64,000 nucleotides of DNA from an uncultured SAR86 cluster bacterium (GTDB lineage: Bacteria; Pseudomonadota; Gammaproteobacteria; Magnimaribacterales; D2472). Position numbers and translations under genes: made by a program. Positions 1,253 through 22,992 of this stretch are shown one piece after another (the stretch's first letter is position 1; the number at the start of each line of letters is the position of its first letter). Where the stretch lies: NCBI GenBank assembly GCA_902586925.1, contig CACIJE010000001.1, positions 5,720 through 69,719 of the forward strand, written 5' to 3'. A model generated the notes under the pieces. The model saw nothing but the letters and a program-made list of their open reading frames with translations, had not been told where the DNA came from and did no database searches.

Positions 1253-1271
1253 TGCGACATTTTGTGTCGTA
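1253..1271. promoter_or_regulatory. palindromic operator copy 1 (putative WYL binding site)
   Basis: TGCGACA-TTTTG-TGTCGTA. Confidence 0.75.
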
Positions 1272-1284
1272 TAAAACTAATTTT

Positions 1285-2103: not shown

Positions 2104-2122
2104 AACTAATTATAACCACAAA

Positions 2123-2890
2123 TCAAAGCAAGGGTTTTTTTATAGCTTTTGCATCTTTTACGCCAAGGATATCTTTAATAAATCGGTATCCCTCTTGCCC
2201 CCTCTTCTTGATAAGCGCCTTTTTAAAAATATCTTTTTCCTCACCAGATAGACCATAAATAAAATCAAGCATATGTTTGTTGGTGCCACCAAAAATAGGC
2301 ATAGTTATGTAAAAAGCGTTTTTGGTGCAGGCTACAGTTTGTCCCTCTTCATTTTGATTAATGGCGATTTGTTGCCCTCTAATATTACTTTTATCAACAA
2401 TAAGGTGCTTAAAGTCTAGGATATATTTAGCGTTATATAGGATTGAATTATTTTTTTTATTATCGACTTTTTGATTTTTAATTATTTTTTTTAATTCAGG
2501 AAACTTACCATCTATCGGATTAAAAAAAAATGTATTAATAGCAGCGTTATCAAGACTAATAAAATATTTTCTATACATATTTTTTGATATGTTTGAACGA
2601 TATTTAACAATAATTTTTTTCTTTCTATTTGCTGATTTTCTTGAGAGAGTAATTAATTTCTCCAGGCCCTTTTTAGGAATAATGATTCCTTTTTTATGAG
2701 AACATGAGCCTAACTCGTCATAGAAACATATTATTCTGTGGCCATCTGTGGCAACTATATTTACACCGCCATGTACAGAAGGATTTATAAAAACACCTTG
2801 TAAATTCTGCCTCCAATCAACATTTGGCACAATAAACATTGCATTGCCAAACATTCCAGCATTGAATTCTAATAAAGTATTCTTATGCAT
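2123..2890 (-). CDS. truncated DNA polymerase III beta-clamp-like protein
   Basis: RQNLQGV...IVATDGHRI and IDGKFP match the DnaN central domain; YITMPI resembles the DnaN C-terminal strand. Likely start ATG 2890 (track starts at 2899). Confidence 0.65.
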   Translation of the reverse strand: MHKNTLLEFNAGMFGNAMFIVPNVDWRQNLQGVFINPSVHGGVNIVATDGHRIICFYDELGSCSHKKGIIIPKKGLEKLITLSRKSANRKKKIIVKYRSNISKNMYRKYFISLDNAAINTFFFNPIDGKFPELKKIIKNQKVDNKKNNSILYNAKYILDFKHLIVDKSNIRGQQIAINQNEEGQTVACTKNAFYITMPIFGGTNKHMLDFIYGLSGEEKDIFKKALIKKRGQEGYRFIKDILGVKDAKAIKKPLL

Positions 2891-5057
2891 AAGCGTCACT
2901 TGTTTCTTGTTTGTTAAAACCGAAGTCTCTCTTGTATTTAGCTATTAAAAGAAGATCATCTTCTCCTAGCTTATTGCAGAATATTTCAAATAATTTTTTT
3001 CTGTCTAATTCAGATTTAAACCATTTTGGCTTAATTTTTTGTAATCTCTTTAATGAAAGCTTTTTGGCTAATGACATATTCGATTTAAAAGCTGGGACAC
3101 ATATATCTTTATCGGTTTTGATTGTTATGTGTGCTCTTAAAAATTTTTCTTCAGGCTTGTCGTGAAAAATGTTATCAAGTAATCTTTTATTTTTTTTAGA
3201 AGAAATTGATGCATATTTAAACGATTGTGTATTTTTCATACAAGCAAATTTTAAAACATCAGGGTCTGACTTTATTCTTTCTGAAGCGTATTTTAAGCTT
3301 TGATATGATTTTATAACCGCTTGAATCATAAATTTTTTATTATCAAGTAGATTTGGTGGTATATGATTTTTTTCAAAGCAAGTAAGTCCTTGTTCTGCAA
3401 ATAATTTGAAATAAAATTTGCTATTAACAATTTTATTAAATTGCTCGGGTTTGCAAAAAGGTGCATTCCTAGGATCTTTTTTTTGACCAAATTTAATTTC
3501 AGGATCGTATATTAGAAAATTTGGATTTTTTAATAAAAAATATTCCATAATTTCACGAGTTTTGAGTTTATCTGAAATTTTAAAATAAAATAATTTGCTA
3601 TAGGATTCATTGTCTGCATGATGACGGTAATCAAAAGTTGATTGATAACTTATGATTTTTTTTAAGAACTCAAAGTCTTTATTTGATTCTATATGCTCGA
3701 TAGTTCTTTTAGTGATATCGTCAAGGAACGTCCTGACAAAACCATCTTCATAATAATTCGATATGTGAAGCATTTTTCTAAATTGTATTAAAAAAAGTTT
3801 AGAAGATTTAACCCTTTCATCTAAATTGTCGTAAAATTTTTTGATCTCATAAGAATATATAAACTCATCCCCACGATCTCCACTTACATGCGGGTGAATA
3901 TTTAATTTACATGCAATATGATGAATATATTCTGCTGCTTTTTTAGGACTAGCCTCAATATATTTTAAAAATGTGCACTTTTTTGATTCTATTTTTTTAT
4001 GCATAAAAAAAAGAGGGTGAGATGGATTATGAAGGCTGATATTTACATGACTATAAATACTATAATCTTGATCTAAAAATCTACATTCGTAGAGAAATTT
4101 GCTTATCTTTGAATCTGTAATTTTATTTATATCAATATTTTCTGAGATTTGTTTGGAGGCGTTAATCGTATTAAAAATTGGCCAGTTAAAACGAAAATTA
4201 ACAAGCTTATCTATACTTTTAGTCTTTTTAAAAAAAGCATCTAAAATAGCATTTCGTAACAAAGAAAAATCTATACCAGAAATCCTTAATTTTCTCATCA
4301 TTATTTTTGTCGATTCGTGATATCCATAATAACCTTTACCTTCAAAAGGGAATGGTAAAACATGAGGAGTTGGGGTGCTAAGTGCATAATCTATGACGAT
4401 ATCCGCGTACTCCTCTAGTGTAATTTCATTATTAAGCATGAATAAATAAGCTGCGCTTGGTGAAAGCTTAAGTGCTTGTTTTTTAATCTCAAGGTCATCA
4501 TATGTTTTAGATTTTTTTATTACTTTCCAAGGTGGGCTAAAATATTCCCATGAAGCAACGTGAAATTTGTCAAAAAGTGAAAGATTTTTAGGGTGACTAG
4601 AAGGTATTTTTAGACAATTATCATATTGTTTAGATTTTGGCACTAGTAAATTTTTTGAGTGACCAAAAGATCTTAGAATATTTTTTTTTGTTTGAAATGA
4701 GTGATCTAGAGACTCTACAAAATTAAATGAGTCATCTTTTTTATTTTCAATAATAAAATTAATTATGAACGGGTCATTAAAACATATTTCAGGCAAGTGT
4801 CTTGGCATTTTCTTTTGCCTTGTTAACCATTTTAAAACTATTTCTCTATCACTTCTTAACCTCTCAGAAATATGAGCAATATTAAAATACTTCTCATGTA
4901 TATACTCAAGTACGAAGTCTTTATCATCAAAATATTTTGATGAAATAATTTCATCTGGCTTAGTATGCCAGCGATTAGCAAGTGATTTATAGGCTTCAAT
5001 AACTGAAGATTTGTTGTTTATCAATGGTTTGTTGAATAAATTTTGACTATTTTTCAT
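2883..5057 (-). CDS. DUF4116 repeat-containing protein
   Basis: Repeats such as DDKDFVLEYI...ISERLRSDREIVL and DNKKFMIQAV...LKYASERIKSDPDVL. Confidence 0.7.
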   Translation of the reverse strand: MKNSQNLFNKPLINNKSSVIEAYKSLANRWHTKPDEIISSKYFDDKDFVLEYIHEKYFNIAHISERLRSDREIVLKWLTRQKKMPRHLPEICFNDPFIINFIIENKKDDSFNFVESLDHSFQTKKNILRSFGHSKNLLVPKSKQYDNCLKIPSSHPKNLSLFDKFHVASWEYFSPPWKVIKKSKTYDDLEIKKQALKLSPSAAYLFMLNNEITLEEYADIVIDYALSTPTPHVLPFPFEGKGYYGYHESTKIMMRKLRISGIDFSLLRNAILDAFFKKTKSIDKLVNFRFNWPIFNTINASKQISENIDINKITDSKISKFLYECRFLDQDYSIYSHVNISLHNPSHPLFFMHKKIESKKCTFLKYIEASPKKAAEYIHHIACKLNIHPHVSGDRGDEFIYSYEIKKFYDNLDERVKSSKLFLIQFRKMLHISNYYEDGFVRTFLDDITKRTIEHIESNKDFEFLKKIISYQSTFDYRHHADNESYSKLFYFKISDKLKTREIMEYFLLKNPNFLIYDPEIKFGQKKDPRNAPFCKPEQFNKIVNSKFYFKLFAEQGLTCFEKNHIPPNLLDNKKFMIQAVIKSYQSLKYASERIKSDPDVLKFACMKNTQSFKYASISSKKNKRLLDNIFHDKPEEKFLRAHITIKTDKDICVPAFKSNMSLAKKLSLKRLQKIKPKWFKSELDRKKLFEIFCNKLGEDDLLLIAKYKRDFGFNKQETSDAYA

Positions 5058-5058
5058 T

Positions 5059-6213
5059 TTAGTGCCAACTTTCAGTAGAAATTCTTATTACTTCGCCAAA
5101 AGGAAATTCTGAAGTTTCTTCACCATCAGCTGAAACTAACCACATGACAGGATCCTTTGGAACAAATTTTGGAAATTCTTCGTATCCATCTGTGAGGTAA
5201 ATAGAAACTTTATGGGAACCCATATGATTTTCGTTGTTTTTTTCAAGGTATTTAAAGAAGGGTACAAAGCTTGTTCCTCCCCCTCCCTTTAAAACTGGGA
5301 TTTCTTCAGGAGAGCTTATTTTAAATGGGCCAGACAATTCACAATCACAAAAGAAAAAGTCACATTTCACATGTGGATATGATTTTAATATTCCATTTAT
5401 CTCTGCTACAAATTGATCTATTAGATCTCTTGAGACTGAACCACTTGTATCAACACAAACTGATACTTCCAAAGCCTCGGTCATAAGACCCTCAAGATAA
5501 AGCCCTCTGTACAAGAATCTTCTGTCTAAGTCATCAAAATCTGCTGGTGTTCTTCCTACATATTTCCAAAGTGCATGTCTCCAATTCACCTCAGGTTCTA
5601 AAATATTTTCTACTTCTCTTTCCATTCCATCTGGCAAACCTCCTGTGGTATTACTGCCAAATTTGTCAGAATTATTTACCATATCGGAGTTTTTTAAAAC
5701 TTGTATTTTATCTTTCCAGTAACTTTCTATCTCCAGACCATCTGCTTGACTAGAATTATCATTAGTTCCGCCGTCTTTAAGATCCTGAATATATGATTTA
5801 TGCTTTTTGTATTTATTGTTTTTCAGTAAAGATTCGTAAATAAATTCAACTGACTTATCCCTGTATGTTTTATCAGTAATTGCTCCTTTTGGCAGTATAA
5901 AAGTAGTATTTCTTAAAATTAAATCATTTACGACTATGTCAGCAGCAATATTCCATATTTTTGGATCTCTATTTTGTCGTCTTGTAACATGCAGCAGTGC
6001 CATATGAAGAACTTCGTGCAACATTAAGGCATTTTGCTCTGAAGAATTAAGGCTTTTGAGAAAATTCATGTTGAAATAAATATCTTTTCCATCTGTACAA
6101 GCTGTATCATATTTTTTTGTTTCTTTAATCGAGGCAAATAACATCAAGGCTCCAAAGAATTGACATTCTTTTCGGACTTGAAGCTTGCATTTGCTGATAA
6201 TTTCTTCAAACAT
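5059..6213 (-). CDS. DUF2201-type metallopeptidase plus vWA-like domain protein
   Basis: TACTDG, HEVLH zincin motif, WNIAAD, MIDAS DTSGS, GGGGTSF, LTDGY. Confidence 0.88.
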   Translation of the reverse strand: MFEEIISKCKLQVRKECQFFGALMLFASIKETKKYDTACTDGKDIYFNMNFLKSLNSSEQNALMLHEVLHMALLHVTRRQNRDPKIWNIAADIVVNDLILRNTTFILPKGAITDKTYRDKSVEFIYESLLKNNKYKKHKSYIQDLKDGGTNDNSSQADGLEIESYWKDKIQVLKNSDMVNNSDKFGSNTTGGLPDGMEREVENILEPEVNWRHALWKYVGRTPADFDDLDRRFLYRGLYLEGLMTEALEVSVCVDTSGSVSRDLIDQFVAEINGILKSYPHVKCDFFFCDCELSGPFKISSPEEIPVLKGGGGTSFVPFFKYLEKNNENHMGSHKVSIYLTDGYEEFPKFVPKDPVMWLVSADGEETSEFPFGEVIRISTESWH

Positions 6214-6214
6214 T

Positions 6215-7222
6215 TTATGCTGCTAATAATTTTTGAAGTCTTTCTGCAACCTTCATAAGCTTGTTATTATTTGCAATCATATCTACTAACTGGTCCATTT
6301 GTTTAGAAGTTTTCCATTTTGCACAGACATCATAAGTACACTGACTAAGCCACTCCATTCCACCTTTATCATCAATATATAAGAAGGTGTTTTCTACTTC
6401 TTTTATGGTCTTAGCTCTTGTTGCAAGAGCGCATGTTAGTGCATACCTAGCAGATAAATCCTTAGGGAAGCTTGGTTTTGCCTTACCTTTTAATATTGGT
6501 TCAATATCTGGTAATGTTTTATAAACTTTGCAAAAACTTCTAAATTCAGCTGCACAACCCTCGCCTATTGCAGGATCTATGTCTAAATTAGCTTTCAACA
6601 AAGAATTGCTAATATCCCAACTTCTTGGTGAAGGCCATGAGGGAGAGTTTTTGTCAATTTTATGGAGATATTTTGGTCTAAAATTAAGAAATGAAATAAT
6701 TCTGTCGTCAACATCATTTGTTAAGGCATAGTCCTTAAACTCATCAAGACCTGTTGTAACCTCCAGATGAATAAATCTATTAGCCAAAGGTGCTGGCATA
6801 TCAAAAACTGCTGCAAAATCCTCTTTTCTATTTCCAGCTGACCAAATAAACCATCCGTCAGGGACTTTATAGCTACCAACTTTTCTGTCTAAAATTAATT
6901 GTTGAGCAATACCTTGAACAGCAGGTGGTGCCATATTTATTTCGTCTAAGAATAGAATGCCTTTTCCATCTTTTGGTAAAAATTCTGGGGGATACCAACA
7001 AGCAACATTATCGTTTGGAACAGGGATACCTCGTAAATCTGTTGGAGCTAATTGACTAATCCTTAGATCTATAAGCTCAAGATTATTTCTTTTTGCAACC
7101 GAACTTACTACAGATGATTTTCCAATACCTGGTGCACCCCAAATCATCAACGAAGATTGGATATTATGTTCAACTATGCTGCTAAGATAGGATGAAAGTT
7201 TTTTTATTGAAAGTTTTTTCAT
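6215..7222 (-). CDS. MoxR-like AAA+ ATPase
   Basis: Walker A GAPGIGKS, Walker B ILFLDEIN, AGNR, LANRF, SPRSW. Start ATG 7222 follows AGAGG RBS. Confidence 0.88.
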   Translation of the reverse strand: MKKLSIKKLSSYLSSIVEHNIQSSLMIWGAPGIGKSSVVSSVAKRNNLELIDLRISQLAPTDLRGIPVPNDNVACWYPPEFLPKDGKGILFLDEINMAPPAVQGIAQQLILDRKVGSYKVPDGWFIWSAGNRKEDFAAVFDMPAPLANRFIHLEVTTGLDEFKDYALTNDVDDRIISFLNFRPKYLHKIDKNSPSWPSPRSWDISNSLLKANLDIDPAIGEGCAAEFRSFCKVYKTLPDIEPILKGKAKPSFPKDLSARYALTCALATRAKTIKEVENTFLYIDDKGGMEWLSQCTYDVCAKWKTSKQMDQLVDMIANNNKLMKVAERLQKLLAA

Positions 7223-7267
7223 TTTTTTTCCTCTTTGAAATTTAATTATCATAAGATATTATTAAGT

Positions 7268-7286
7268 AACGACATTTTGTGTCGCA
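7268..7286. promoter_or_regulatory. palindromic operator copy 2, between the divergent AAA ATPase and WYL genes
   Basis: AACGACA-TTTTG-TGTCGCA. Confidence 0.8.
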
Positions 7287-7304
7287 TTTAAAGATTAAAG
7301 TTTG

Positions 7305-8315
7305 ATGAAAAAACCAACTCGTTATGAGGCTATAAGAAGAGGATTTAATATCCTCTCTATGGTCAGTCGAGCTCCATTAGGATCTAAAGATGTCCATGAT
7401 CGAATAAATCGAATTGGTACTGAAGTAAGTAGAAAAACTATTGAAAGAGATTTAAAAGAACTAACTGATCGATTCCCTGAGATGATTGAAGTTGATGATT
7501 CATCTAAACCATATACCTATAGACAGCCAAAACATGCTAGAAAATATTCTGCAATGAGTGCAGAGGAAGCTATATGTCTTCAACTTGCGTTCACTTATTT
7601 AAATCCTTTGTTGCCGAATAGATCACTCGATGATATCAGGCCTTATTTAAAAGAGGCGGAAGCTGTCCTAGGTGAGCAGTCTTCTGTAAAAATGAAAAAT
7701 TGGAAACATAAAGTTTTAACTGTTAATGAGGGTTTACAGCTTGCACAAGCAAAAATTAGAGACAATATTTTAACAAATATACACAAAGCTCTCTGGGATG
7801 GTAAAGCAATTATTGCAAGCTATCAGTCAAAAAGTAAAGCTTTTCCCTCTGAGTACAAGCTTCACCCTGCTGGGCTTGTTTACAGAGGAAGAATTTGTTA
7901 CTTAGTTTGTTCTTTTGATGATTCACCAGATAACATTATTTATTTAGCAGCACATAGGTTTCACAAAATTAAAATTTCTCTTGATACCTATAGCAGACAT
8001 AAAAATCAAAAAGTTAAAGATCTAGCTAAAGACTTATTTGGGTTTAAGCTGAATGACAAAAAAATAAATATTAAACTAAAGTTTTCTGTTCAAGCAGGAT
8101 CTCATCTGTATGAAACGCCAATTTCGAGTTCTCAAAAAATAAAGATGTCTAGAGATGGCTATATATTAGTTGAGGATAAAGTTACTGATAATATGGAACT
8201 TAGATTTTGGATAAGAGCTTTTGGAGATTCTGTAGAAGTAATTAAACCAGTCAAACTTCGAGATGAGTTTAAGAAAATATCAAAAAGAATGGTAAATTTA
8301 TATAATGAAAATTAA
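7305..8315 (+). CDS. WYL domain transcriptional regulator (HTH-WYL-WCX)
   Basis: N-terminal wHTH (VSRKTIERDLKEL), WYL region (LHPAGLVYRGRICYLV...HRF) and C-terminal WCX (WIRAFGDSVEVIKPVKLR). Confidence 0.9.
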   Translation: MKKPTRYEAIRRGFNILSMVSRAPLGSKDVHDRINRIGTEVSRKTIERDLKELTDRFPEMIEVDDSSKPYTYRQPKHARKYSAMSAEEAICLQLAFTYLNPLLPNRSLDDIRPYLKEAEAVLGEQSSVKMKNWKHKVLTVNEGLQLAQAKIRDNILTNIHKALWDGKAIIASYQSKSKAFPSEYKLHPAGLVYRGRICYLVCSFDDSPDNIIYLAAHRFHKIKISLDTYSRHKNQKVKDLAKDLFGFKLNDKKINIKLKFSVQAGSHLYETPISSSQKIKMSRDGYILVEDKVTDNMELRFWIRAFGDSVEVIKPVKLRDEFKKISKRMVNLYNEN

Positions 8316-8703
8316 GCCAAATTCTATTGATGCTGTTATTTTTTTTACATTGTATATTTGCGCTCAAGACGATTTAATTGCTAAGGAAGAAATTGAACAA
8401 ATTGATATTGAATTTCCAATGATTCAAAAATTATATTTTGATATATATGGGGAATTCATTAAAGAGGACCTTAAAGAGCTTATGAGAAGTGTTTCAAACA
8501 AATTATTATCAAGTAACAAATTTATCAAAAAAAGTGTATCAAAACTAGAAAATACTACTTTTTCAACATTAATTACAGATCCGAAGCTTCAAGACATTTC
8601 ATTATTATTCGCTAGGCATGCTGCAAGTGCAGACGGTTTACATGCTCTAGAAGAAAACAAGTTTAATTATTGGGCAAAAAAATGGGGTCTTTCGAAAGTT
8701 TAA
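8305..8703 (+). CDS. TerB-like protein
   Basis: AQDDLIAKEE and ASADGLHALEE half-repeats; overlaps the WYL stop; paralogous to 14430-14774. Confidence 0.6.
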   Translation: MKIKPNSIDAVIFFTLYICAQDDLIAKEEIEQIDIEFPMIQKLYFDIYGEFIKEDLKELMRSVSNKLLSSNKFIKKSVSKLENTTFSTLITDPKLQDISLLFARHAASADGLHALEENKFNYWAKKWGLSKV

Positions 8704-9512
8704 TGTTTTGTTATTGATGAAGTGACTACACCTATAATTTGAAAATCACAAGTCTCAAAATCTTTATAAACTTTATCTTTTTTATCAATTACAAATCCAT
8801 TTTTTCTATATTCAAGACATCCACATATAAATTCGCCGTCTATCATAGCAACAACAATATCATTAATTTCTGGTTTTTGAGATTGATCAACAATCATAAT
8901 ATCTCCGTCGTTAATACCGTGCTCTCGATTAGATTGGCCTTGAGCTCTATATAGGATAGTTGCAGATCTATTTCGAATAAGATATTTGTTTAAATCTATA
9001 GGACCTTCGATATAATCTGATTCATCACTTGGAAAACTTGGTTTATTTTTCTTATTTAAACATGGGTATATAATTTTTCTCAAAAATTTGGTATCAATAA
9101 CCTTTCCACTATATACAGCATCACAAAGTTCTTCTGATTCAAAAAATCTTTTTTCATGGGAACCAAATTTATTAGTTTTAATGTTTAAGCTTATCGGGAA
9201 GAAAATTGTTCCTGGCTTTGAACGATCTTCTGTTAATAAAGCTCTTAATGGAGACGGTATGGAATATCCATCAAAAATGTAATCTGCAAATCGTAATAAA
9301 TTAAAGAAGATTTTCCAAGCAATGCTTTTTTTTAAATTAGCTTCTTTTTGTAAACACTTTTCTCTTAGATTTTTATATTTTTGTTCAAGATATTCTTTTT
9401 TATTACGTAAATCTGAAATTTCTTTTGCTTTGACAAAAATTTCGTCTCCCTCAGCAGGCAAGCTTTCTCTTATTCTTATGTCTTTGGAAACTTTTATTAT
9501 CTCATCAGGCAT
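8700..9512 (-). CDS. N-terminally extended UmuD/S24-like protein, probably catalytically inactive
   Basis: C-terminal half aligns with the UmuD at 28389 (DYIEGPIDLNKYLIRN, RAQGQS, IDGEF). Start 9512 (MPDEII) or 9596. Confidence 0.75.
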   Translation of the reverse strand: MPDEIIKVSKDIRIRESLPAEGDEIFVKAKEISDLRNKKEYLEQKYKNLREKCLQKEANLKKSIAWKIFFNLLRFADYIFDGYSIPSPLRALLTEDRSKPGTIFFPISLNIKTNKFGSHEKRFFESEELCDAVYSGKVIDTKFLRKIIYPCLNKKNKPSFPSDESDYIEGPIDLNKYLIRNRSATILYRAQGQSNREHGINDGDIMIVDQSQKPEINDIVVAMIDGEFICGCLEYRKNGFVIDKKDKVYKDFETCDFQIIGVVTSSITKH

Positions 9513-9600
9513 ATACGTTTGATCTATTAATATAGACAAAACATATATTTGATTTATTTTAGTGTTTCCTAATAAACCTTTAGTAGTGAAAATCATTACT

Positions 9601-9789
9601 TTAAAAAATGATTTTTAAACTAAATGAAATTTGACTTGGTTCTTCCTCAACACAGGATTTCGAGGAGAAAATGTGTTTAATATTACTATTTTTTTTATAA
9701 ACATAGTTTTTTGATAATTCATTGTAAAAATCTGATGACATATTTGGAAGTTCTAGTTGCAATTCTTTTGATTCTGATTCTGTAGTCAT
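9601..9789 (-). CDS. small hypothetical protein (62 aa)
   Basis: Strong AGGAG RBS; operator 47 bp upstream. Confidence 0.6.
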   Translation of the reverse strand: MTTESESKELQLELPNMSSDFYNELSKNYVYKKNSNIKHIFSSKSCVEEEPSQISFSLKIIF

Positions 9790-9835
9790 TTTTATTCTCC
9801 TATTAATTTTTAATAATAAAATTATTTATCAATCA

Positions 9836-9854
9836 TGCGACAGAATAGGTCGGA
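9836..9854. promoter_or_regulatory. palindromic operator copy 3
   Basis: TGCGACA-GAATA-GGTCGGA. Confidence 0.65.
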
Positions 9855-9865
9855 AAAAAATATTA

Positions 9866-10116
9866 GAGTGGCGCCCTTGCATAATTTTACTCATACCAGG
9901 GCGCATCTATAGTGATCCGTTGCATATAGATGCTTTAACAAGCTCACCTAACAAGGCGTCTTTCACTTTGCATATAGATGCTTTAACAAGCTTAGCTAAC
10001 AAACGTCCTTGTTCTTGATTTTCCGCAAAGCTAATGTGCTTTTGTACTAATAACATAAAATATCGATAAATATTACGGTAATAATCAATGTTTAATAAAA
10101 TATGCCACTCAATCAA
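9866..10116 (-). ncRNA. putative structured non-coding RNA, copy A
   Basis: Several helices with compensatory changes relative to copy B; G-U pairs favour the minus strand; lies just downstream of operator 4. Confidence 0.6.
9920..10007. repeat. internal tandem duplication with 48-bp period
   Basis: TTGCATATAGATGCTTTAACAAGCT is identical at 9920-9944 and 9968-9992. Confidence 0.9.
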
Positions 10117-10139
10117 CTATGAAAATTATTTATCAATCA

Positions 10140-10158
10140 TGCGACATAATAGGTCGGA
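10140..10158. promoter_or_regulatory. palindromic operator copy 4
   Basis: TGCGACA-TAATA-GGTCGGA. Confidence 0.65.
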
Positions 10159-10183
10159 CAAAAAGATATACTAGAATTGAAAT

Positions 10184-10379
10184 CGCCCTCGCATAATTTT
10201 ACTCATACGAGGGTGCTTCAATGTAGATCCGTAGCATAAGAAGATTTAACAAGCTCAGCTAAAAAAGCATCCTTGTATTGTTTTTTCCGCAAAGCTAATG
10301 TGCTTTTGTACTAATAACGTAAAATATCGATAAACATTACGGTTAAAAACAAGGTTTAATTAAATATGCCACCAAACCA
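10184..10379 (-). ncRNA. putative structured non-coding RNA, copy B
   Basis: Homologous to copy A with the same helices and no conserved reading frame; begins right after the stop of the 717-aa gene. Confidence 0.55.
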
Positions 10380-12533
10380 CTATGCCACTTCTGCAAGTAG
10401 TTGTTTTTTAAATTTCGAATGCTTCAGCATCGACTTATGAACAACTGATCTATAAGCATTATAGACATAGATTTTTTCTTTTTTATCTAATTCTGAGGTA
10501 TCTAATTTATAGAAATCATTTTTGTTTAGTAAAAATTTTGCGTATTCTGGATTAATTTTAAAAACACAATTTGAAATTGTTTTATGAAAACAATGTGTTC
10601 TAAGAATTAATTGTAAGATTGATAAATCCTGGTCACGACCTCCAGTCAACATTGGATTATGTAATAAATATTGTGCAATAAATAACCTATTTTTAAGCAA
10701 TTTAGATCCTCGAAGATCATCAGTTGATTCAATGTGTGGTGGAGGCACACTTATGATAAATTTAGAAAATTTATCTCCAGAAATAATAACTTTATTGAAA
10801 CAGTTTAAACATTTAAAATTTTTTCTATATACCTGCTTGATTAAACAGTGATTTTTTTTCCATTGAGGATAAATCTTAAGAACAGTTTGCATCTGTTTTA
10901 CTGAATAACTTTCTAAAGTTTCAAGAAAAAGATTTTTTGATTCTTCTGAAGAGTAGTGTTTAGATGCAAAATTCCAAAACTGAATTAATATATCAAGACT
11001 GTGTTTCTGTGAAACATAATATTTATATATTTTTTTTATCAAATCTTTATCTTTGTATGGATCTAAATTTAACTTTGAAAATCTATTTCCTCTTGAGGAT
11101 ATGAGATTTTGTGGCATCTTTCTCATGAAATATTTCTTAATATTGTATTGATCATCTCGTAGCATGTGAAAAGTATTTTGTATATGGTCATAATCTGCAT
11201 ATATCGATTGCGTTATAAGATACTTTCGTATTTTTGGACAATTTTTAATCATCAGCTTGACTAGGTTGTAATCAAAATCTAAAAGCTCATGGGATGAAAT
11301 ATTAAATGTAGAGCCATAGAATTTAAATACCCTGATTAGTTCTCTACATATTTTAAAATCGCTTTGCAAAATTGTTGGAAGCGCTAAATATGACTTTCCA
11401 ATTTTTCCTGATACATGAGATGCTTTTTCTGTAGAGCCTTGAAATAGATTTACCTGGCTAAATTTTTCATTTGGATTTAATTTTAGTTGTTCAAGCTCTT
11501 TTTTAATGTTTTGTAATTCCCTATAAAAGTTATCTTTATGTATTTTATAATCTGATAACTTAGCTGTTTCCATTTTATTTAAATTATTCTTTATCAAACT
11601 CAATTCAAAAATATCTATATTTCCATTATTTTTTTTACGGTGATGTGTTTTAGCAGCAAGTAATAAAAAGGCTTTTTTAGCTTTAGAAAGCTTTATATTT
11701 TTTTTAGACAAATCTAGAATTTCTTGATATTTAATTTTAGTTACTTTGCTTTCAGGACAATAATCAAAGTAATACTGAAGATCATTATCTGTTAAGTTTT
11801 TTAGATTGATATCAATATGTTGAAAACATTTATTTTTTACAATTTTTGTTGTTATTGTATCTATGTTCCTAATTTTTGAAGGGATGCAGTCGATTTGATT
11901 GGGATAGTTATCTATCATGCAAGATGCAATATCTAAATCGTATTGCATATCAGAGGTTAAATCACCATACGTAAAAATAACATCATTAGTATTTCTATTA
12001 TTTTTTGAAAAGCAGCCGTTATTTAGGGCTTTTAGAAGTTGATTTTTTTTGAGTTTTCTTCCTATTCCTTTATGCAGTGGTAATCCAAACTCAACCAGCT
12101 TTTGAGTTATTTCAGGATCATTTAAGACTTTAAATGATATGACTCTTACAAAAGATGTCGTATTAAAGCTTTTAGAATTTTTACTTAATAATTTTAATAA
12201 CAGTCCTTTATCTTCTCTGATGTATGAAGGCATAATCCCCCAGTCAAGCGGATGTTTTGAGTTTGTGATTACTTTTATATATAGATTTTTATGAGATATA
12301 TCTTTTGAAATTTTATATCTATGCAGCCTGCCAAGCCATCCTTGTAAAGACCAGTTATCATATCTTATTATAAAATTTAATAGGTCTACATCAGTAAGAT
12401 ATTTAAAAGGAATGGAATTAATATCCATTTTTTTACTTTTAATTTTTCTTAAAACACCTGCTTTGTTAAGCAAATGTTTTGTCTTAAAATCAAGGTAAAC
12501 AAACCCTGCAGATGATTTTGTTAAATAGTTCAT
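10380..12533 (-). CDS. large basic hypothetical protein, possibly with degenerate DUF4116-like repeats
   Basis: 717-aa ORF with segments like MPSYIREDKGLLLKLL, LTSDMQYDLDIA and LPTILQSDFKIC. Confidence 0.7.
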   Translation of the reverse strand: MNYLTKSSAGFVYLDFKTKHLLNKAGVLRKIKSKKMDINSIPFKYLTDVDLLNFIIRYDNWSLQGWLGRLHRYKISKDISHKNLYIKVITNSKHPLDWGIMPSYIREDKGLLLKLLSKNSKSFNTTSFVRVISFKVLNDPEITQKLVEFGLPLHKGIGRKLKKNQLLKALNNGCFSKNNRNTNDVIFTYGDLTSDMQYDLDIASCMIDNYPNQIDCIPSKIRNIDTITTKIVKNKCFQHIDINLKNLTDNDLQYYFDYCPESKVTKIKYQEILDLSKKNIKLSKAKKAFLLLAAKTHHRKKNNGNIDIFELSLIKNNLNKMETAKLSDYKIHKDNFYRELQNIKKELEQLKLNPNEKFSQVNLFQGSTEKASHVSGKIGKSYLALPTILQSDFKICRELIRVFKFYGSTFNISSHELLDFDYNLVKLMIKNCPKIRKYLITQSIYADYDHIQNTFHMLRDDQYNIKKYFMRKMPQNLISSRGNRFSKLNLDPYKDKDLIKKIYKYYVSQKHSLDILIQFWNFASKHYSSEESKNLFLETLESYSVKQMQTVLKIYPQWKKNHCLIKQVYRKNFKCLNCFNKVIISGDKFSKFIISVPPPHIESTDDLRGSKLLKNRLFIAQYLLHNPMLTGGRDQDLSILQLILRTHCFHKTISNCVFKINPEYAKFLLNKNDFYKLDTSELDKKEKIYVYNAYRSVVHKSMLKHSKFKKQLLAEVA

Positions 12534-13336
12534 ATGCTTAAAGAGGGTAAAGAGTTTTTGCTGTTTGCTAAATCTAATAACCTTTTTTTATGAGTTGCAA
12601 TAATAAAGGGGTCTGTATCAAACCTTTGACATCTTTTCTTATATTGCTGCCATATTAACTTAAAAATTTTTGGATCTTGCATCAAAGAATAGTCGAGCAC
12701 ATCGATTTGAATATTTTTAAGTTTTTTTATAAATTGTAGTCTATTATTTTTCTTTGAAAAAATCGCAGCTTCTATAAAGCATAAATATTTTTTTTCAGAC
12801 TTTTCAAGACAATCAAAATACTTACCATTTTCAATAATTATTTGTCTTTTTATATCTAAATTTGGATGAACATTAGTTAAAAATTTTATTAGCTCTGGAT
12901 TAGAGTTGCAACTGTATTCCTTTATATTCTGTGGCATATGATTAACTAAAAATGGAAAGGAGTCAGAAATCTTTTTTCCAATCTTATTGTTAAGCTTAGA
13001 TTTGTAAACTTTATAAAAAATATCTCGAACATCTTTTTTTATCTTATCAATTTTATTTTCGAATATATTTTGAGACATATGCTCATGGGCATATTTAAAA
13101 ACATTCCCTCTTTTATCTTTTCCTTGATCAATGATCAATCTTGTTTGCGAAAATTGTGGCCAAATATGATATTTGACCTTCTTGTTAGATGATTTTCTGT
13201 AAAATCCTCCATTGCCGCCAACAGAATCTATAAGCATTTGCATTTTCTCAATGTCATTTTTTAGTCCCATCCAATAGAAGTTTTCGTTTGCTATATGAGA
13301 CTCTCCTCTTGCCTCTTCTAATAATTTTATATTCAT
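12530..13336 (-). CDS. hypothetical protein (268 aa)
   Basis: ORF with a 4-bp overlap to the 717-aa gene. Confidence 0.7.
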   Translation of the reverse strand: MNIKLLEEARGESHIANENFYWMGLKNDIEKMQMLIDSVGGNGGFYRKSSNKKVKYHIWPQFSQTRLIIDQGKDKRGNVFKYAHEHMSQNIFENKIDKIKKDVRDIFYKVYKSKLNNKIGKKISDSFPFLVNHMPQNIKEYSCNSNPELIKFLTNVHPNLDIKRQIIIENGKYFDCLEKSEKKYLCFIEAAIFSKKNNRLQFIKKLKNIQIDVLDYSLMQDPKIFKLIWQQYKKRCQRFDTDPFIIATHKKRLLDLANSKNSLPSLSI

Positions 13337-13401
13337 TAACAGTATTTCTTATGTTTTGCCATTTACCTTATTGGTAATAGGAATAAATTTTTACTAAGAG
13401 T

Positions 13402-13420
13402 TGCGACATTTAGTGTCGCA
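13402..13420. promoter_or_regulatory. palindromic operator copy 5 (perfect arms)
   Basis: TGCGACA-TTTAG-TGTCGCA. Confidence 0.8.
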
Positions 13421-13435
13421 TAGAAGAATAAAACT

Positions 13436-13762
13436 TTAGTGATGATTTTCTATATCTGGAGGATCGCTTTTTATTAAATATTCAATATCTTCTGATTGTT
13501 CTTGTTTATGCCCAACGAGAATTATTATTTTATTGTTGCTTAGGACGCAAGTATAAATTCTTCCCTGATTATCATTTCCATTTGATATCTTATGAGTAAC
13601 TTCTTTCCAGTGCTTAGTTTTTTGTACATTTTTATAAGAGATATAGCTGTCTTTACTATGAATTTTATATATTACATCCTCCAGCTTCTGAGTATCTTTG
13701 AAATGCCTATAAACAGCTTTAAGACCCCTTGGTAATAAATTAATATTCGAGTATCTATCCAT
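13436..13762 (-). CDS. hypothetical protein, possible RelE/HigB-fold toxin
   Basis: C-terminal GRIY...IIILVGHKQEQSEDI resembles the RIY...LL.GxK..Q..DI pattern of HigB-like toxins. Confidence 0.5.
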   Translation of the reverse strand: MDRYSNINLLPRGLKAVYRHFKDTQKLEDVIYKIHSKDSYISYKNVQKTKHWKEVTHKISNGNDNQGRIYTCVLSNNKIIILVGHKQEQSEDIEYLIKSDPPDIENHH

Positions 13763-13788
13763 GCTTCTCTCAAATTGCGATACTAATA

Positions 13789-13807
13789 TGCGACATTTTA
13801 GGTCGCA
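13789..13807. promoter_or_regulatory. palindromic operator copy 6
   Basis: TGCGACA-TTTTA-GGTCGCA, with an extra half-site TGCGATA at 13776-13782. Confidence 0.75.
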
Positions 13808-14011
13808 TTGATTACAAATCTAAAAGCTGTCTATATTCTTGAAGCTCATATCTATTTGCAATATTTAAATATGAAAATAATGCGAAGGGTTACAGAGAAA
13901 AAAATGGTTCGCAGGAATGCGGTTCTTGAGATAAATTTACTTTAGTATTTACTTAAGCATCTTTGTAATTATGATTTATAAAAATTAAAAGTTATATTTC
14001 TATTCTAGGAA

Positions 14012-14272: not shown

Positions 14273-14429
14273 TAGTACCTCCCTGAATTAATTTATTGAT
14301 TAACTATATTATCAAATATTGTTGGTAACATTTATTTCAAAAATATTAATATCGCACCATACAAAATAATAGTATTTATTTGCACATTTTAATGCTTGGT
14401 GTAAATTAATAACTACATGGGGACAAATT

Positions 14430-14774
14430 ATGAAAGAAGTAATTGATGTAATAAAGCTTTCTGCTTGCATTTCTGCACAAGATGGTGTGATTTCAAATAG
14501 AGAATTAGATACATGTCGTGAGCTTATAAGAGATGAGTACGGAGATCTTAGTGACGATTCATTTGATCAGGCAATTGATGATTTTTTTGATGAGAACCTT
14601 GATTTAGAGGATTATTTAGAGAAGGTTAAATCACATAAAATGGATAATCATTGCGTTTTAAAGATTAGCTATGAGTCAGCTATTAGTGATGGTTTTGATA
14701 TAAGAGAAAATTTAGCTTTCACAAAAGCATGTAAATTTTTTGACATACCAGAAGAGGAATTTATTGATGCCTGA
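14430..14774 (+). CDS. TerB-like protein
   Basis: AQDGVISNRE and AISDGFDIRE half-repeats. Confidence 0.65.
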   Translation: MKEVIDVIKLSACISAQDGVISNRELDTCRELIRDEYGDLSDDSFDQAIDDFFDENLDLEDYLEKVKSHKMDNHCVLKISYESAISDGFDIRENLAFTKACKFFDIPEEEFIDA

Positions 14775-16131
14775 GCTTGTTAACGGAAATCCATCTCCAA
14801 AATCTCATATCAAAACGTTAATGAGAATTGGCTACGATTTAAATTCTGCAGTTGCTGATATTATTGACAACTCAATATCTGCTGAAGCATCTGAAATTGC
14901 AGTAGCCTGTCCTCCTGATTCAAGTGAGCCTTATATCTTAATCTCTGATAATGGTATTGGAATGAACGAGGGTGAGCTTATTGAAAATATGCGAATCGGA
15001 TGCAAGGATCCAAGCTTGGAAAGAGATTTAAAAGATTTAGGAAGGTTTGGATCCGGGATGAAGACTGCAAGTTTTTCTCAAGCTAGAAAGCTAACTGTTA
15101 TTTCTAAAAAGAAAGGCTCCAATATTTGTGCGGCTTATTGGGATATAGATGAAATAGAGGAAACTGATACGTGGTGTCTAAAAAAATTAAATACCAATGA
15201 AATTAAAGATATACCTCAACTTAGCAATAATCCTATAAGTAAAAATGGAACATTATTAATATGGGAAAAGATTCCAAAATTTTTTATTAAAGATCATGTT
15301 AGCTTAGAAAAAGAGATTGCTTCTAACATGGTAGATTTAGCCAAATACATATCCTTACATTTTCATAAGTTTATGCAAGGTCCTAATAAAGTATCAATTT
15401 CTGTTCAGAATAGAGAATTAAAGCCATTAGATCCATTTCTAAAAGGACAGCCTGGATCGCAGGATGGGCCATCTGAGCCAATAAGAACAAAAAAAGGTAA
15501 AGTAACTGTAAATACTCATATTCTCCCCCATCCAAAAAGAATTTCAAAAAGTTTGATTGATGAGCATGGTGGAATTGATGAAATATATAAAAATCAAGGC
15601 CTATATATCTATAGAGCTAATAGATTAATTATTGCTGGGGGATGGATGGGGATATCTAATACTAACATCTTGGGCAATCTTGCTAGAGTTGAAATAAATA
15701 TTCCTGCCAGTTTAGATGATGAGTGGTCAACGGATGTAAAAAAGTCATCAATGCAGCTACCACCAAAAGTTAAAACTGTTTTAAAAAGACTTGGTAAAGT
15801 TCCTGTTGAAGGCTCTAAAAAAGAACATAATTATAGTGGCAATAAACAAATAGCTAATCAATATTGGGACATAATTGAAGATGAAGTTAAAAAAACAGTT
15901 AAATACCATATCTATCTTGATAATAATGAATTAAAGAGTTTTACCGAAGAACTTACAAAAGATAAAAAGATCGCTTTAAAAAAATACTTACAAAATCTTT
16001 GTATTAATCTTCCCTATTATCATATTTTTCAAAAACATGCTGCAGACCCTAAAGCAATTGAACAAAATGAAATTGATTTAGATACATTTATTAAGGCTCG
16101 TAAAGAACTAGACAAAATATGGAACACTTAA
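14767..16131 (+). CDS. GHKL (MORC/MutL-like) ATPase, MzaB-like
   Basis: AVADIIDNS, ISDNGIGM, LGRFGSGMKTAS, GT motifs; start ATG 14767. Confidence 0.88.
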   Translation: MPELVNGNPSPKSHIKTLMRIGYDLNSAVADIIDNSISAEASEIAVACPPDSSEPYILISDNGIGMNEGELIENMRIGCKDPSLERDLKDLGRFGSGMKTASFSQARKLTVISKKKGSNICAAYWDIDEIEETDTWCLKKLNTNEIKDIPQLSNNPISKNGTLLIWEKIPKFFIKDHVSLEKEIASNMVDLAKYISLHFHKFMQGPNKVSISVQNRELKPLDPFLKGQPGSQDGPSEPIRTKKGKVTVNTHILPHPKRISKSLIDEHGGIDEIYKNQGLYIYRANRLIIAGGWMGISNTNILGNLARVEINIPASLDDEWSTDVKKSSMQLPPKVKTVLKRLGKVPVEGSKKEHNYSGNKQIANQYWDIIEDEVKKTVKYHIYLDNNELKSFTEELTKDKKIALKKYLQNLCINLPYYHIFQKHAADPKAIEQNEIDLDTFIKARKELDKIWNT

Positions 16132-18917
16132 GCGATCAAATAAATGTTGTAAGATCAGAGATCTTGCGACAAGTTAAACAAGGGCAACTTGTATCTTTAG
16201 ACCTTGTTGAAAAAACGATAGATATTTTTAATACAGCAGCTTCTTGGAACTTATCTAAAGAAGAGATTGAACATATTGCCTTTCAAATAGAAAGTACTAT
16301 GAATATTGGCATAGATAACCAAGCTGTCATTCTCGGAAATTCTGAAAATGGTGTAAAAAGATGGTTTGATGCCTCAAAGACAGAATTTAATTGGACTTAT
16401 TGGGAAGCATATGAGCGATTACTTCAAGAAAGTGGAAGATCTATAGAAGTGCTAAATGAAAACGAGAAGATTATTGATAGCATATTAGATCTGTCAGGAG
16501 ATCCAAGAATAGAAGAGCCATGGAAAAGAGCTGGTCTTGTTATGGGCAATGTTCAATCTGGGAAGACTCAAAATTATTTAGGGCTCATAAATAAGGCAAT
16601 GGATTGTGGTTATAAGATAATTATTATTTTAGGTGGGCATCAAAATGAACTCAGGAGGCAGACACAATTAAGGGTAGATGAAGGAGTCATTGGAAGAGAA
16701 TCAATTCATTTAGTTCAAGGTTATCAAGATATACCAATTGGAGTTGGAAGCTGGAGACCGGAAAGAGTAAGCACTATGACGACATCAGAGTCAGATTTTA
16801 ATAAACAAACTGCAAATAATCTGCGAATAGATCTGCGTGACTTGAAAGTACCAATTATATTTACAATTAAAAAACTAAAACCAATAATGAAGAATCTTTA
16901 TGAATGGATAGCAGATTTCCATGATCTAAAACCTGACAATGGAAGAAAATTAAACTTGCCAATGTTATTAATTGACGACGAAGCAGATTATGCCTCTATA
17001 AATACTTTAGCACACAGAGACGATATTACAGCTACAAATAAATATATAAGAATGTTAAGGAGTTTATTTAATAGATCAACTTACGTTGCTTATACTGCTA
17101 CACCTTTTGCGAATATTTTTATTGATCCTGACTCTAGCGATGAGATGATTAATGATGAAAATCTTTTTCCAAAAGATTTTATGATTAAAATTCCAGTTCC
17201 TGATAACTATCTTGGTCAAAATTTTTATTTTGAGAGTAGTGATGAAGGGGGAGTTAGAGATCCAATTGTTTTAATTGATGACAATGAAGAAATGCTTCCA
17301 CTGAAACATAATTCAAAAAGCGATGTTGGACCAATATCTGAAAGTTTAAAAGATGCCATCAGAGCATTTATTATTTCAGGTGCTATAAGAAATCTTAGAG
17401 GTGATGAGCACGAGCATAAAACGATGATAGTTAACATTACCGCTTTAAATATTCATCAAAAAGAGTTGACCTTTATGATTGAAAATTATTTAAAAGAATT
17501 AACTAATCAAATATCCTCTAATACTGGATTTCCAATTGAGCAAGCTATTAAAAATTCTACAATTAACACAATTAAGAATACCTTTGAAATGAGGTTTAAT
17601 GTTGAAGAGAGTTTTGCAGAGCTCTATAACCAACTTCATGCTGCTTCAGCTAAGATAAAGGTATTTGGTATTAATAATGAATCGGATCAGCTCCTAGACT
17701 ATTCCCCATATGACAAAGGATTGTCTGCAATTGTTATTGGAGGTCATAAGCTCTCAAGAGGATTAACTTTAGAGGGTCTAAATATTTCGTATTTTGCAAG
17801 AAATTCAAAAGCTTATGACACCCTTATGCAAATGTGTCGTTGGTTTGGGTATAGACCGAAATATGGTGATCTATGCAAAGTATATCTTCCTGTTGAATCT
17901 AATGAATGGTATTCCTTTATATCAGAAGCAATAAATGATCTATATAAGCAACTTGAAAGAATGAGCCTTCAAGGTAAAACACCATCTGATTTTGGTCTTA
18001 AGGTCAGAGCTCATCCAGGGGCGCTTCAAGTAACTGCAAATCATAAAAAAGAAACCGCCGAAGCTACTGTTTTGAAAATTGATCTATGGGGTAATAGGCA
18101 AAGAAGGTTCAGATTTTATAATGATAATGTTGTTAATGATCAAAACTTTAATACAGCTGAAAAATTTATAAATGAAATACAAGAACTAAATCCTGATAAT
18201 GTCACAAAAGATGATCGAACTCCAAGCATTGTGATAGACGATGTATCACATAAAGATATTATTAGTTTTCTAGAAAAAATGAAATTAAAAGAAGATGATC
18301 TGGGAGATATGCCCTTATTAAACCATATAGGTTTTATGGATAAAAATAAGATGCCAAACTTTAAAGTAGTAGTTTTTAATCAAAACAGTGGTAGAGATTT
18401 TTTATGGTCTAAACACGATAAACATAAAGAATTAGCTGATAGTAAAAAAATTAAATTTGCTGGTCATTCAATTAGTCTTGCAAATAGGACTGTTAAATCT
18501 GATGGTGAATTAATTTTCCCACCAAGAGCTGAACTTGGAAGTTCTGTTGATGAAAGCATAGGCTTATCAAATGAAACAATCAAAAAAATGAAAGAAGATT
18601 CCACTAAATCGCTTGGACATTTTGATTATATAAGAGCAGAAGAAAGAGATTATCCTATGCTGATTATTTATCTTTTTAATCTTGCAGTTGCAGAGCCTTA
18701 CGAAAAATTTACAGACAAGGATTATGAAAATATAGATGTCACTCTCCCTTTTGAAAAGCCAACTGTTGGATTATCAATTTCTTTCCCAATTTTAGAGAAT
18801 CAAAAAGATATGAACAAAAAGGATATTGGTAAAATTAATCGTGACTCTATGCAACTAGCTGAAACTAATAAGGTATTCAGACAAATGGAAATGTTTACTA
18901 CTCCGGAGGATTATTAA
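16119..18917 (+). CDS. Z1 domain protein with SF2-helicase-like N-terminus, MzaC-like
   Basis: GNVQSGKT, LIDDEAD, TATP, LSRGLTLEGL, MQMCRWFGYR. Confidence 0.92.
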   Translation: MEHLSDQINVVRSEILRQVKQGQLVSLDLVEKTIDIFNTAASWNLSKEEIEHIAFQIESTMNIGIDNQAVILGNSENGVKRWFDASKTEFNWTYWEAYERLLQESGRSIEVLNENEKIIDSILDLSGDPRIEEPWKRAGLVMGNVQSGKTQNYLGLINKAMDCGYKIIIILGGHQNELRRQTQLRVDEGVIGRESIHLVQGYQDIPIGVGSWRPERVSTMTTSESDFNKQTANNLRIDLRDLKVPIIFTIKKLKPIMKNLYEWIADFHDLKPDNGRKLNLPMLLIDDEADYASINTLAHRDDITATNKYIRMLRSLFNRSTYVAYTATPFANIFIDPDSSDEMINDENLFPKDFMIKIPVPDNYLGQNFYFESSDEGGVRDPIVLIDDNEEMLPLKHNSKSDVGPISESLKDAIRAFIISGAIRNLRGDEHEHKTMIVNITALNIHQKELTFMIENYLKELTNQISSNTGFPIEQAIKNSTINTIKNTFEMRFNVEESFAELYNQLHAASAKIKVFGINNESDQLLDYSPYDKGLSAIVIGGHKLSRGLTLEGLNISYFARNSKAYDTLMQMCRWFGYRPKYGDLCKVYLPVESNEWYSFISEAINDLYKQLERMSLQGKTPSDFGLKVRAHPGALQVTANHKKETAEATVLKIDLWGNRQRRFRFYNDNVVNDQNFNTAEKFINEIQELNPDNVTKDDRTPSIVIDDVSHKDIISFLEKMKLKEDDLGDMPLLNHIGFMDKNKMPNFKVVVFNQNSGRDFLWSKHDKHKELADSKKIKFAGHSISLANRTVKSDGELIFPPRAELGSSVDESIGLSNETIKKMKEDSTKSLGHFDYIRAEERDYPMLIIYLFNLAVAEPYEKFTDKDYENIDVTLPFEKPTVGLSISFPILENQKDMNKKDIGKINRDSMQLAETNKVFRQMEMFTTPEDY

Positions 18918-18919
18918 TA

Positions 18920-19891: not shown

Positions 19892-19906
19892 ACTTTAACT
19901 AATTCT

Positions 19907-22045: not shown

Positions 22046-22057
22046 GAGATAAAAAAC

Positions 22058-22987: not shown

Positions 22988-22992
22988 AAATT

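Follow-up and report, generated by a model that had tools for sequence, protein, structure and literature searches.

Tandemly duplicated noncoding elements in a WYL-type regulon of an uncultured SAR86 bacterium, probably a lineage-specific, damage-induced RNA pair

In Escherichia coli, the small RNA IstR-2 is SOS-controlled under the LexA repressor, and IstR pairs with a toxin mRNA. Type III toxin-antitoxin systems (ToxI type) contain short tandem RNA repeats of about 36 nucleotides (nt), which are processed by the adjacent endoribonuclease toxin. The WYL activators DriD and DdaA, wHTH-WYL-WCX regulators that bind and activate their promoters when loaded with single-stranded DNA, have so far been described, within the article texts covered here, with protein-coding targets. 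In those texts, the Caulobacter DriD site is printed as CGAC-N7-GTCG (PMC13010146), stands beside the DdaA site CGWCA-N5-TGWCG (PMC12392091), and overlaps the place of a -35, with constant spacing to the -10 (PMC13004042). Here, a 64,000-nt stretch of DNA from an uncultured SAR86 cluster bacterium was analysed (GenBank assembly GCA_902586925.1, contig CACIJE010000001.1, forward-strand positions 5,720 to 69,719; hereafter the window, to whose positions coordinates refer unless another locus is named), with attention to an intergenic gap of about 560 nt. Judged by its sequence, this gap consists of a unit of about 260 nt duplicated in tandem and composed of a noncoding element, a GC-rich hairpin, and a predicted WYL-activator (DriD/DdaA-type) box with its -10. 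The box motif and the order of the unit within the regulon lead us to read copy B as the 3' untranslated region (UTR) of an operon of two orphan genes (p268-p717), and copy A as a unit free of open reading frames (ORFs) behind a complete duplicated promoter. The two copies are probably a lineage-specific, damage-induced noncoding RNA pair born by duplication.

The box sequence of DriD/DdaA-type promoters was found at 10142-10156, before copy A, with AATAAT at 10125-10130 (+12 to +17 past the box on the minus strand), and at 9838-9852, before a 62-amino-acid (aa) ORF and its UmuD-like operon, with AATAAT at 9821-9826. The strict form, CGAC-N7-GTCG, occurs exactly six times in the whole genome, at 1255, 7270, 9838, 10142, 13404, and 13791, all within the regulon, and a 16-mer taken from the box, with up to three mismatches allowed, matched the window 8 times where 0.36 matches were expected. 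A hexamer with A at its second and T at its sixth position stands at +12 to +17 of five of the six boxes, a pattern common by chance in DNA of about 30% GC, and reads AATAAT at both gap boxes. The box CGAC-N7-GTCG is shared with the DriD and DdaA promoters described in the article texts (Caulobacter didA, bapE, and recA; Acinetobacter aciT), and it may likewise take the place of a -35, with a putative -10-like hexamer at constant spacing; shared with the regulators of those texts are the WYL and WCX domains and a regulator gene with its own box. Unlike those systems, one box of this predicted regulon fronts an ORF-less unit. The original prediction, a model's reading of the window, had placed copy A directly downstream of an operator (10142-10156, minus strand) with no convincing coding sequence to control, in a noncoding gap within a WYL-type regulon, and in all of this it was borne out.

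The regulator gene (7302-8315, plus strand; 7270-8315 with its box) encodes a protein with Pfam matches to WYL (5.3e-10) and WCX (1.2e-13), and with no PDB sequence match at E ≤ 0.001. Its box (7270-7284) lies between the gene and a divergent MoxR-like operon, and the box at 13404-13418 is the p268-p717 operon's own. We regard 1255-13805 as a complete, predicted DriD/DdaA-type regulon, whose content includes a PD-(D/E)XK nuclease, a clamp-like protein, a DUF4116 protein, a metallopeptidase/VWA protein, a MoxR-like ATPase, and a UmuD-like S24-domain protein. Over the same span (1255-13805), the six boxes precede PD-(D/E)XK, clamp-like, DUF4116, metallopeptidase/VWA, and MoxR genes, the WYL regulator, two orphan operons, and a 108-aa ORF. 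Relatives of the WYL protein at E ≤ 1e-10 are present in 35 of the 266 genomes of the order, this one included. At the loci of its four closest relatives (49-64% identity), the core gene order is kept, with boxes at matching places in two of the four (L042 and L044), and none of the four loci contains the A/B element, the 717-aa gene, or the 62-aa ORF. L044 (13051-13360, in relative G028) carries two boxes (13281 and 13347) between divergent genes, one of them followed by a 59-aa ORF and then a 748-aa gene, which echoes the layout of box, small ORF, and large gene found here; tblastn detected no similarity between this L044 region and the 62-aa ORF.

Repeat search and pairwise alignment resolved 9818-10384 into unit A (9818-10121) and unit B (10122-10384), which differ by 36 mismatches in 259 ungapped columns (about 14% divergence); the repeat search returned segments of 118 nt (85%), 55 nt (84%), and 46 nt (93%). 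Read on the minus strand, each unit opens with the final 5 nt of the 717-aa gene, or a copy of them, and continues through the noncoding element, the GC-rich hairpin, a short U-run spacer, and the box to GATAAATAATTTT. Unit B begins within the 717-aa gene, including its TAG stop, and extends through element, hairpin, and box to AATAAT; unit A has the same order of parts, and measures 304 nt owing to an internal 48-nt tandem duplication (9920-9967 and 9968-10015, minus strand; spacing 48 in the repeat search). The duplication junction lies 3 nt beyond AATAAT, so that copy A kept a complete box and hexamer. The body of element B (10216-10379, minus strand) begins directly after the stop codon at 10380-10382 as 3'UTR of the p268-p717 operon, a layout also found at a metagenome locus, L009, and that of element A (9905-10118, minus strand) is a predicted stand-alone noncoding transcript with a putative start near 10118, placed by the spacing of box and -10. 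Within the bodies lies a conserved core (A, 10019-10078; B, 10283-10342; both minus strand), formed by a CCGU...GCGG closing helix round an AAAGC/GCUUU hairpin and an AU-rich palindromic hairpin, which differs at 2 of 60 nt between A and B, at none between B and L009, and has pairing probabilities of 0.8-0.98 in all three sequences. The GC-rich hairpin of A (9871-9904, minus strand) has an inner stem of 11 base pairs (bp) with pair probabilities near 1.0; that of B (10184-10215, minus strand) was placed by folds and pair probabilities, and a U7 run (9854-9860) lies 10 nt downstream of the A hairpin. The original prediction had correctly located two homologous elements, with spans that were too short, the true units including hairpin, operator, and AATAAT, and had taken them for two copies of an RNA gene; they are better seen as one 3'UTR-terminator-promoter segment duplicated in tandem, in which B is a 3'UTR and not a separate gene.

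Seen beside small RNAs derived from 3'UTRs, of the CpxQ type, copy B likewise lies between stop codon and hairpin, shares the 3' end region of an mRNA, and has a conserved core; the difference is that the second copy here has its own promoter. B occupies the position of a 3'UTR-derived small RNA; contigs cannot reveal a separate species. The likeness to IstR-2 is that of a noncoding RNA under the promoter logic of a DNA-damage regulon, with the differences that the regulator here is of WYL type and not LexA, that no toxin ORF or antisense partner was found, and that there is no sequence or Rfam relation. Tandem noncoding repeats ahead of a gene in a defence-rich neighbourhood also recall ToxI; an array of the type III toxin-antitoxin kind was rejected, the units being 263-304 nt long, each with its own hairpin and promoter, and the neighbours containing no ToxN-like domain. 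No noncoding target of a WYL activator was found among the titles and abstracts listed by a literature search or in the passages covered of PMC13010146, PMC13004042, and PMC12392091, supplementary regulon tables being outside this scope.

Six metatranscriptome runs contain 23-30% of the words sampled from 9560-10700, and contigs were compared from three of the six, which bear three study codes, share year and habitat, and possibly belong to one campaign. The other three (X17, X19, and X20) contain shares of 0.23-0.26, and part of the stretch is also present in 13 further runs of kind 'DNA?' (X2-X14). All three libraries yielded contigs of A, from 9849, 9850, or 9866 to 10065 or 10094, and contigs of B, from 10227, 10229, or 10287 to 10442, 10467, or 10517, crossing into the gene end, in both cases at 97-99% identity; the internal 48-nt duplication of A is also present in the RNA-library contigs that span it. 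These contigs are consistent with transcription, short of proof. Stretches lacking RNA contigs were 10095-10226 and 9656-9839 (all three libraries), 9611-9848 (apart from X16, up to 9610), and the sequence beyond 10517; contigs at depth 2-4 cannot show absence, and hence nothing is drawn from these stretches. In two runs, B contigs end at 10227 and 10229, inside the conserved ACGGAUC stretch and short of the B hairpin, the A hairpin being covered, which may be chance at depth 2-4, and one A contig has a 23-nt GC-rich loose end at 9866. A DNA run (X1, 28% of it read) gave only 24-36-nt pieces at about 85-96% identity and is no evidence.

Folding was used to compare the strands. On the minus strand, A folds at -66.8 kcal/mol (z -2.80 against dinucleotide shuffles) and B at -53.3 kcal/mol (z -3.82); the plus-strand z-scores are -3.06 for A and -1.79 for B. 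RNAalifold energies against column shuffles gave z of -3.0/-3.2 for the minus and -1.7/-1.8 for the plus strand, with a structure conservation index that is unexceptional (reached by 47 and 65 of 200 shuffles). Read on the minus strand, the hairpin stem has 11 bp, two of them G.U pairs; its plus-strand version has A.C mismatches in their place and is cut to 8 bp with a 16-nt loop. The better fold z-scores, together with the G.U pairs that turn into A.C on the plus strand, support the minus strand as the better modelled RNA strand. The dependence of the stems on G.U pairs, possible on one strand only, also bears on the proposal that the palindromes (TATCGATA and the hairpin arms) function as DNA sites for protein binding or recombination. 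That proposal would suit a perfect 8-bp palindrome within the best-conserved block and a locus in a variable island beside restriction-like genes; against it, the genome holds no further copies, the window contains no tRNA genes, and Pfam assigned a recombinase family to none of the 23 flanking proteins scanned, so that we consider a DNA-level element highly improbable.

Sequence constraint was assessed against L009, the sole relative found, which is 94.4% identical to the window over 3,366 nt, has a B-type copy directly after its 717-aa homologue, and ends at the hairpin. Between element B and L009 there are 7 differences in 211 sites and one gap, and fourfold degenerate sites differ at 14 of 183 in the 717-aa gene and 8 of 52 in the 268-aa gene; B therefore changes less than the pooled fourfold sites (7/211 versus 22/235; Fisher p = 0.012). 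Noncoding DNA is rare in the source genome (1,182,387 bases in 9 contigs, 94.6% complete, 27-37% GC), in which ORFs of at least 80 aa cover 95.5% of the sequence and the median gap is 28 nt. The A/B gap, bounded by the stop of the 717-aa ORF (10380-12533, minus strand) and by the 62-aa ORF (9601-9789, minus strand), ranks fourth in size among 654 gaps; the largest and third largest lie in the rRNA operon, and the second largest is without an Rfam match. An ORF scan of the gap found no credible coding sequence between these two ORFs, and all genes neighbouring it are on the minus strand. The L009 comparison, the A-B pattern, and the rarity of noncoding DNA together suggest purifying selection.

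The most likely reading, which we hold tentatively, is that RNAs are made on the minus strand and carry a conserved core with a post-transcriptional function. After DNA damage, the WYL regulator bound to single-stranded DNA would bind 10142-10156, RNA polymerase would start near 10118, and an RNA A of about 250-270 nt would end at or past the hairpin at 9904-9871; transcription of the box-controlled p268-p717 operon would yield element B as its 3'UTR. The working part would most likely be the compact, best-conserved core with its CCGU/GCGG closing helix, AAAGC hairpin, and AU-rich hairpin, acting probably post-transcriptionally as a trans-acting small RNA, a protein-binding RNA, or a stability element. 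Transcription of both copies on the minus strand is likely; on whether the RNA has a function of its own we are nearly evenly divided, with a slight lean towards doubt. Rather unlikely, as we see it, is the fuller proposal, in which a DriD/DdaA-type WYL-activator regulon would have its first noncoding RNA member, about 250 nt long, structured, made upon damage in a streamlined marine bacterium, present in two paralogous forms (stand-alone and 3'UTR), and acting in trans on the damage response; a bold variant would have the RNA feed back on the nucleic-acid-sensing WYL domain or on another protein of the regulon. As for partners, RNAduplex of the B core against 1,174 start regions ranked the regulon genes from 122 to 1005, and its best hit (-32.7 kcal/mol) apparently falls in the 3' end of an upstream coding region, where shuffled queries reach -30.4 (minimum of 200).

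A number of results weigh against a functional RNA, and the first of these concern covariation, for which three sequences were available (A, B, and L009), two of them nearly identical, so that power is low. RNAalifold on the three gave 65 pairs, of which 51 never vary and one changes on both sides (matched or exceeded by 168 of 500 shuffles). Compensatory column pairs were also counted in every helix able to form in both copies and compared with column shuffles: for helices of at least 4, 5, and 6 bp, the counts were 6, 2, and 1 against shuffle means of 5.1, 2.0, and 0.7, and were reached by 122, 173, and 151 of 300 shuffles. Realignment of one A-run, which brings the first helix of the original prediction into register, changed these to 7, 3, and 2 against 6.2, 2.2, and 0.7 (reached by 127, 116, and 43 of 300). 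Compensatory changes in excess of chance were thus not found among A, B, and L009. The pairs listed in the original prediction do exist, with two amendments, namely that its first helix needs the realignment and that its fifth has 9 bp in A against 4 bp in B. Its 59-nt block has, as described, exactly two differences (10055/10071 versus 10319/10335), which make one A-U to G-C swap in the proposed helix and fit a competing hairpin pair equally well (A-U to G.U and U.G to C-G); the compensatory change in L009 falls in a 3-bp hairpin that is missing from A. The pairs probable in all three sequences (hairpin, CCGU/GCGG, AAAGC/GCUUU, and GCAU/AUGC) are all invariant and hence uninformative on covariation. 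The statements that many differences are compensatory and that the structure is covariation-supported therefore find no backing, with counts at shuffle level, and the covariation claim is unsupported rather than disproved.

Searches for homologues point in the same direction. With Rfam 15 (including self-cleaving ribozymes, 6S, tmRNA, and riboswitches), no match reached the gathering score in the whole window, in agreement with the earlier statement that no family was recognised, and at E ≤ 10 on 9550-10450 the only three matches were at chance level, scoring 10-17 bits where the thresholds stand at 41-100. Blastn of A against 139 genomes of the family returned only four foreign matches (24-50 nt, E 0.0055-0.009), at chance level, and nhmmer on the whole genome and the related loci returned A, B, and L009 only, plus L010 at E = 0.045. 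A covariance model of the core (83 positions) gave six foreign hits in the 139 family genomes (18-24 bits, E 0.04-0.98 per genome), which were rejected, none resembling the element and five of the six lying inside open frames of at least 146 aa. Of three motifs scanned against viral contigs, two had no hit and one had 6, all of them one identical virus sequence without the flanking stem; protein-guided viral scans with p717 and the S24 protein, genome-collection scans with the WYL protein and with a 23-mer, and blastn of a phage collection gave none. A 20-mer scan of metagenomes gave two loci, of which L009 is genuine, and L010 was rejected as a GC-rich chance match. Across Rfam, the 138 other family genomes, and the viral, genome, and metagenome scans, no homologue was detected outside the lineage. 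The homologue collection envisaged for covariation analysis thus yielded no wider family, and with a near-identical relative as the only one found, cross-lineage testing is impossible; what we describe is a lineage-specific candidate and not a covariation-backed new RNA family.

The remaining points against a functional RNA come from constraint, fold, and expression. Set against the fourfold sites of p717 alone, the slower change of B gives a Fisher p of 0.07; the longest identical A-B run is 36 nt (permutation P 0.11) and the best 60-nt A-B window has 2 mismatches (permutation P 0.08), both marginal; an internal duplication of 48 nt is tolerated in A; the models leave the fold ambiguous; and the role of the WYL protein as activator rather than repressor is predicted only. 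The minus-strand transcripts of the original prediction are matched by RNA-library contigs over both copies, but these contigs carry no strand, ends, or level, DNA may be present in the libraries, and flanking-gene contigs in the same runs are of similar depth (2.0-2.7 versus 2.4-3.7). A rival explanation is a neutral by-product, in which B is the mere 3'UTR and terminator of an orphan operon and A a functionless relic of duplication, transcribed since its promoter was copied along. Such a by-product, the next most likely explanation, possible though doubtful, agrees with unit boundaries (stop codon to 3 nt beyond the -10) of the kind that a simple tandem duplication would leave, with covariation at chance level and no wider family, with a duplication-prone region (the extra 48-nt duplication), with an A-B conservation pattern only marginally non-random, and with a position in the variable part of the regulon that is absent from the syntenic loci of four relatives. 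It accounts poorly for 560 nt kept in a genome of 1.18 Mb whose gaps have a median of 28 nt, for the persistence of both copies at about 14% divergence and in several strains, for a B that changes more slowly than pooled fourfold sites, and for a minus-strand fold stability of z about -3.

The RNA reading is weakened further at its 3' end, where a consensus scan for intrinsic terminators found none in 9500-10700. A hairpin that is no canonical terminator would suit a cis-acting leader, in which A is the long leader of the 62-aa/UmuD-like operon, two serial damage-responsive promoters raise or tune induction, and the A hairpin is an attenuator. A does lie directly upstream of that operon on the same strand, and both promoters share box and hexamer; we nevertheless judge such a leader improbable, for it fails to explain the element as 3'UTR after p717, seen also in L009, and no anti-terminator alternative was found. 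The frame in A that could suggest a small protein, an ORF of 69 aa (9907-10116, minus strand; 49 aa if an internal ATG is used), is present and has the 48-nt duplication in frame. Its TTG start, however, coincides with the predicted transcript start and has no Shine-Dalgarno sequence, it has no Pfam or PHROG match, and the internal ATG is ACG in B and L009, where the frame is closed; three of the four B/L009 changes inside a short ORF of B are non-synonymous. The original prediction had stated that no reading frame is shared, and indeed the 69-aa TTG ORF of A runs into a stop in B and frames shift at indels, making a small-protein gene scarcely credible.

Among the neighbouring genes, the orphans p268 (12530-13336, minus strand) and p717 (10380-12533, minus strand), whose transcript would carry B, have no Pfam or PHROG family. 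Searches for homologues of p717 came back empty both across the order (265 other genomes) and in a sample of the class (399 other scored genomes), and p717 has no similarity to the DUF4116 protein (E = 1.4). Downstream of A, the 62-aa ORF (9601-9789, minus strand) has AGGAGA ahead of its ATG and is followed by a gene for a 298-aa protein with a UmuD-like S24 peptidase C-terminus (8700-9596, minus strand; PDB UmuD, E = 1.3e-16). This protein has an N-terminal extension of about 170 aa that belongs to no known family, and its gene sits under a WYL-type box and not a LexA box; in Acinetobacter, the UmuD homologue UmuDAb is said, in the text of PMC13010146, to act like LexA.

Beyond the gap, further ORF-free stretches lie at 13806-14011 (about 200 nt) and 14273-14429 (about 160 nt), beside the 13791 box and ahead of a TerB-like gene. 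Adjoining the regulon, 14740-24748 is a defence-like cluster with HATPase_c_3, Z1, DUF4420 (a PD-(D/E)XK family), and AIPR on the plus strand, ending in two C-5 cytosine methylases on the minus strand (all by Pfam). Elsewhere in the genome, unusually long stretches without ORFs of at least 80 aa occur at G000:C1:1201-2805 (L060), about 3 kb before the window, at C1:396221-397996 (L062), and at C1:691099-691853 (L061); at gathering score, Rfam assigned nothing in these three stretches except one tRNA at the edge of C1:691099-691853.

The element is limited to one lineage, and its general importance is therefore limited unless a function is shown. Within that lineage, the locus illustrates how a 3'UTR can become, through tandem duplication, an RNA gene with its own promoter, here in a genome otherwise shedding noncoding DNA. 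If the RNA target is real, it would add a post-transcriptional arm to the SOS-independent damage response.

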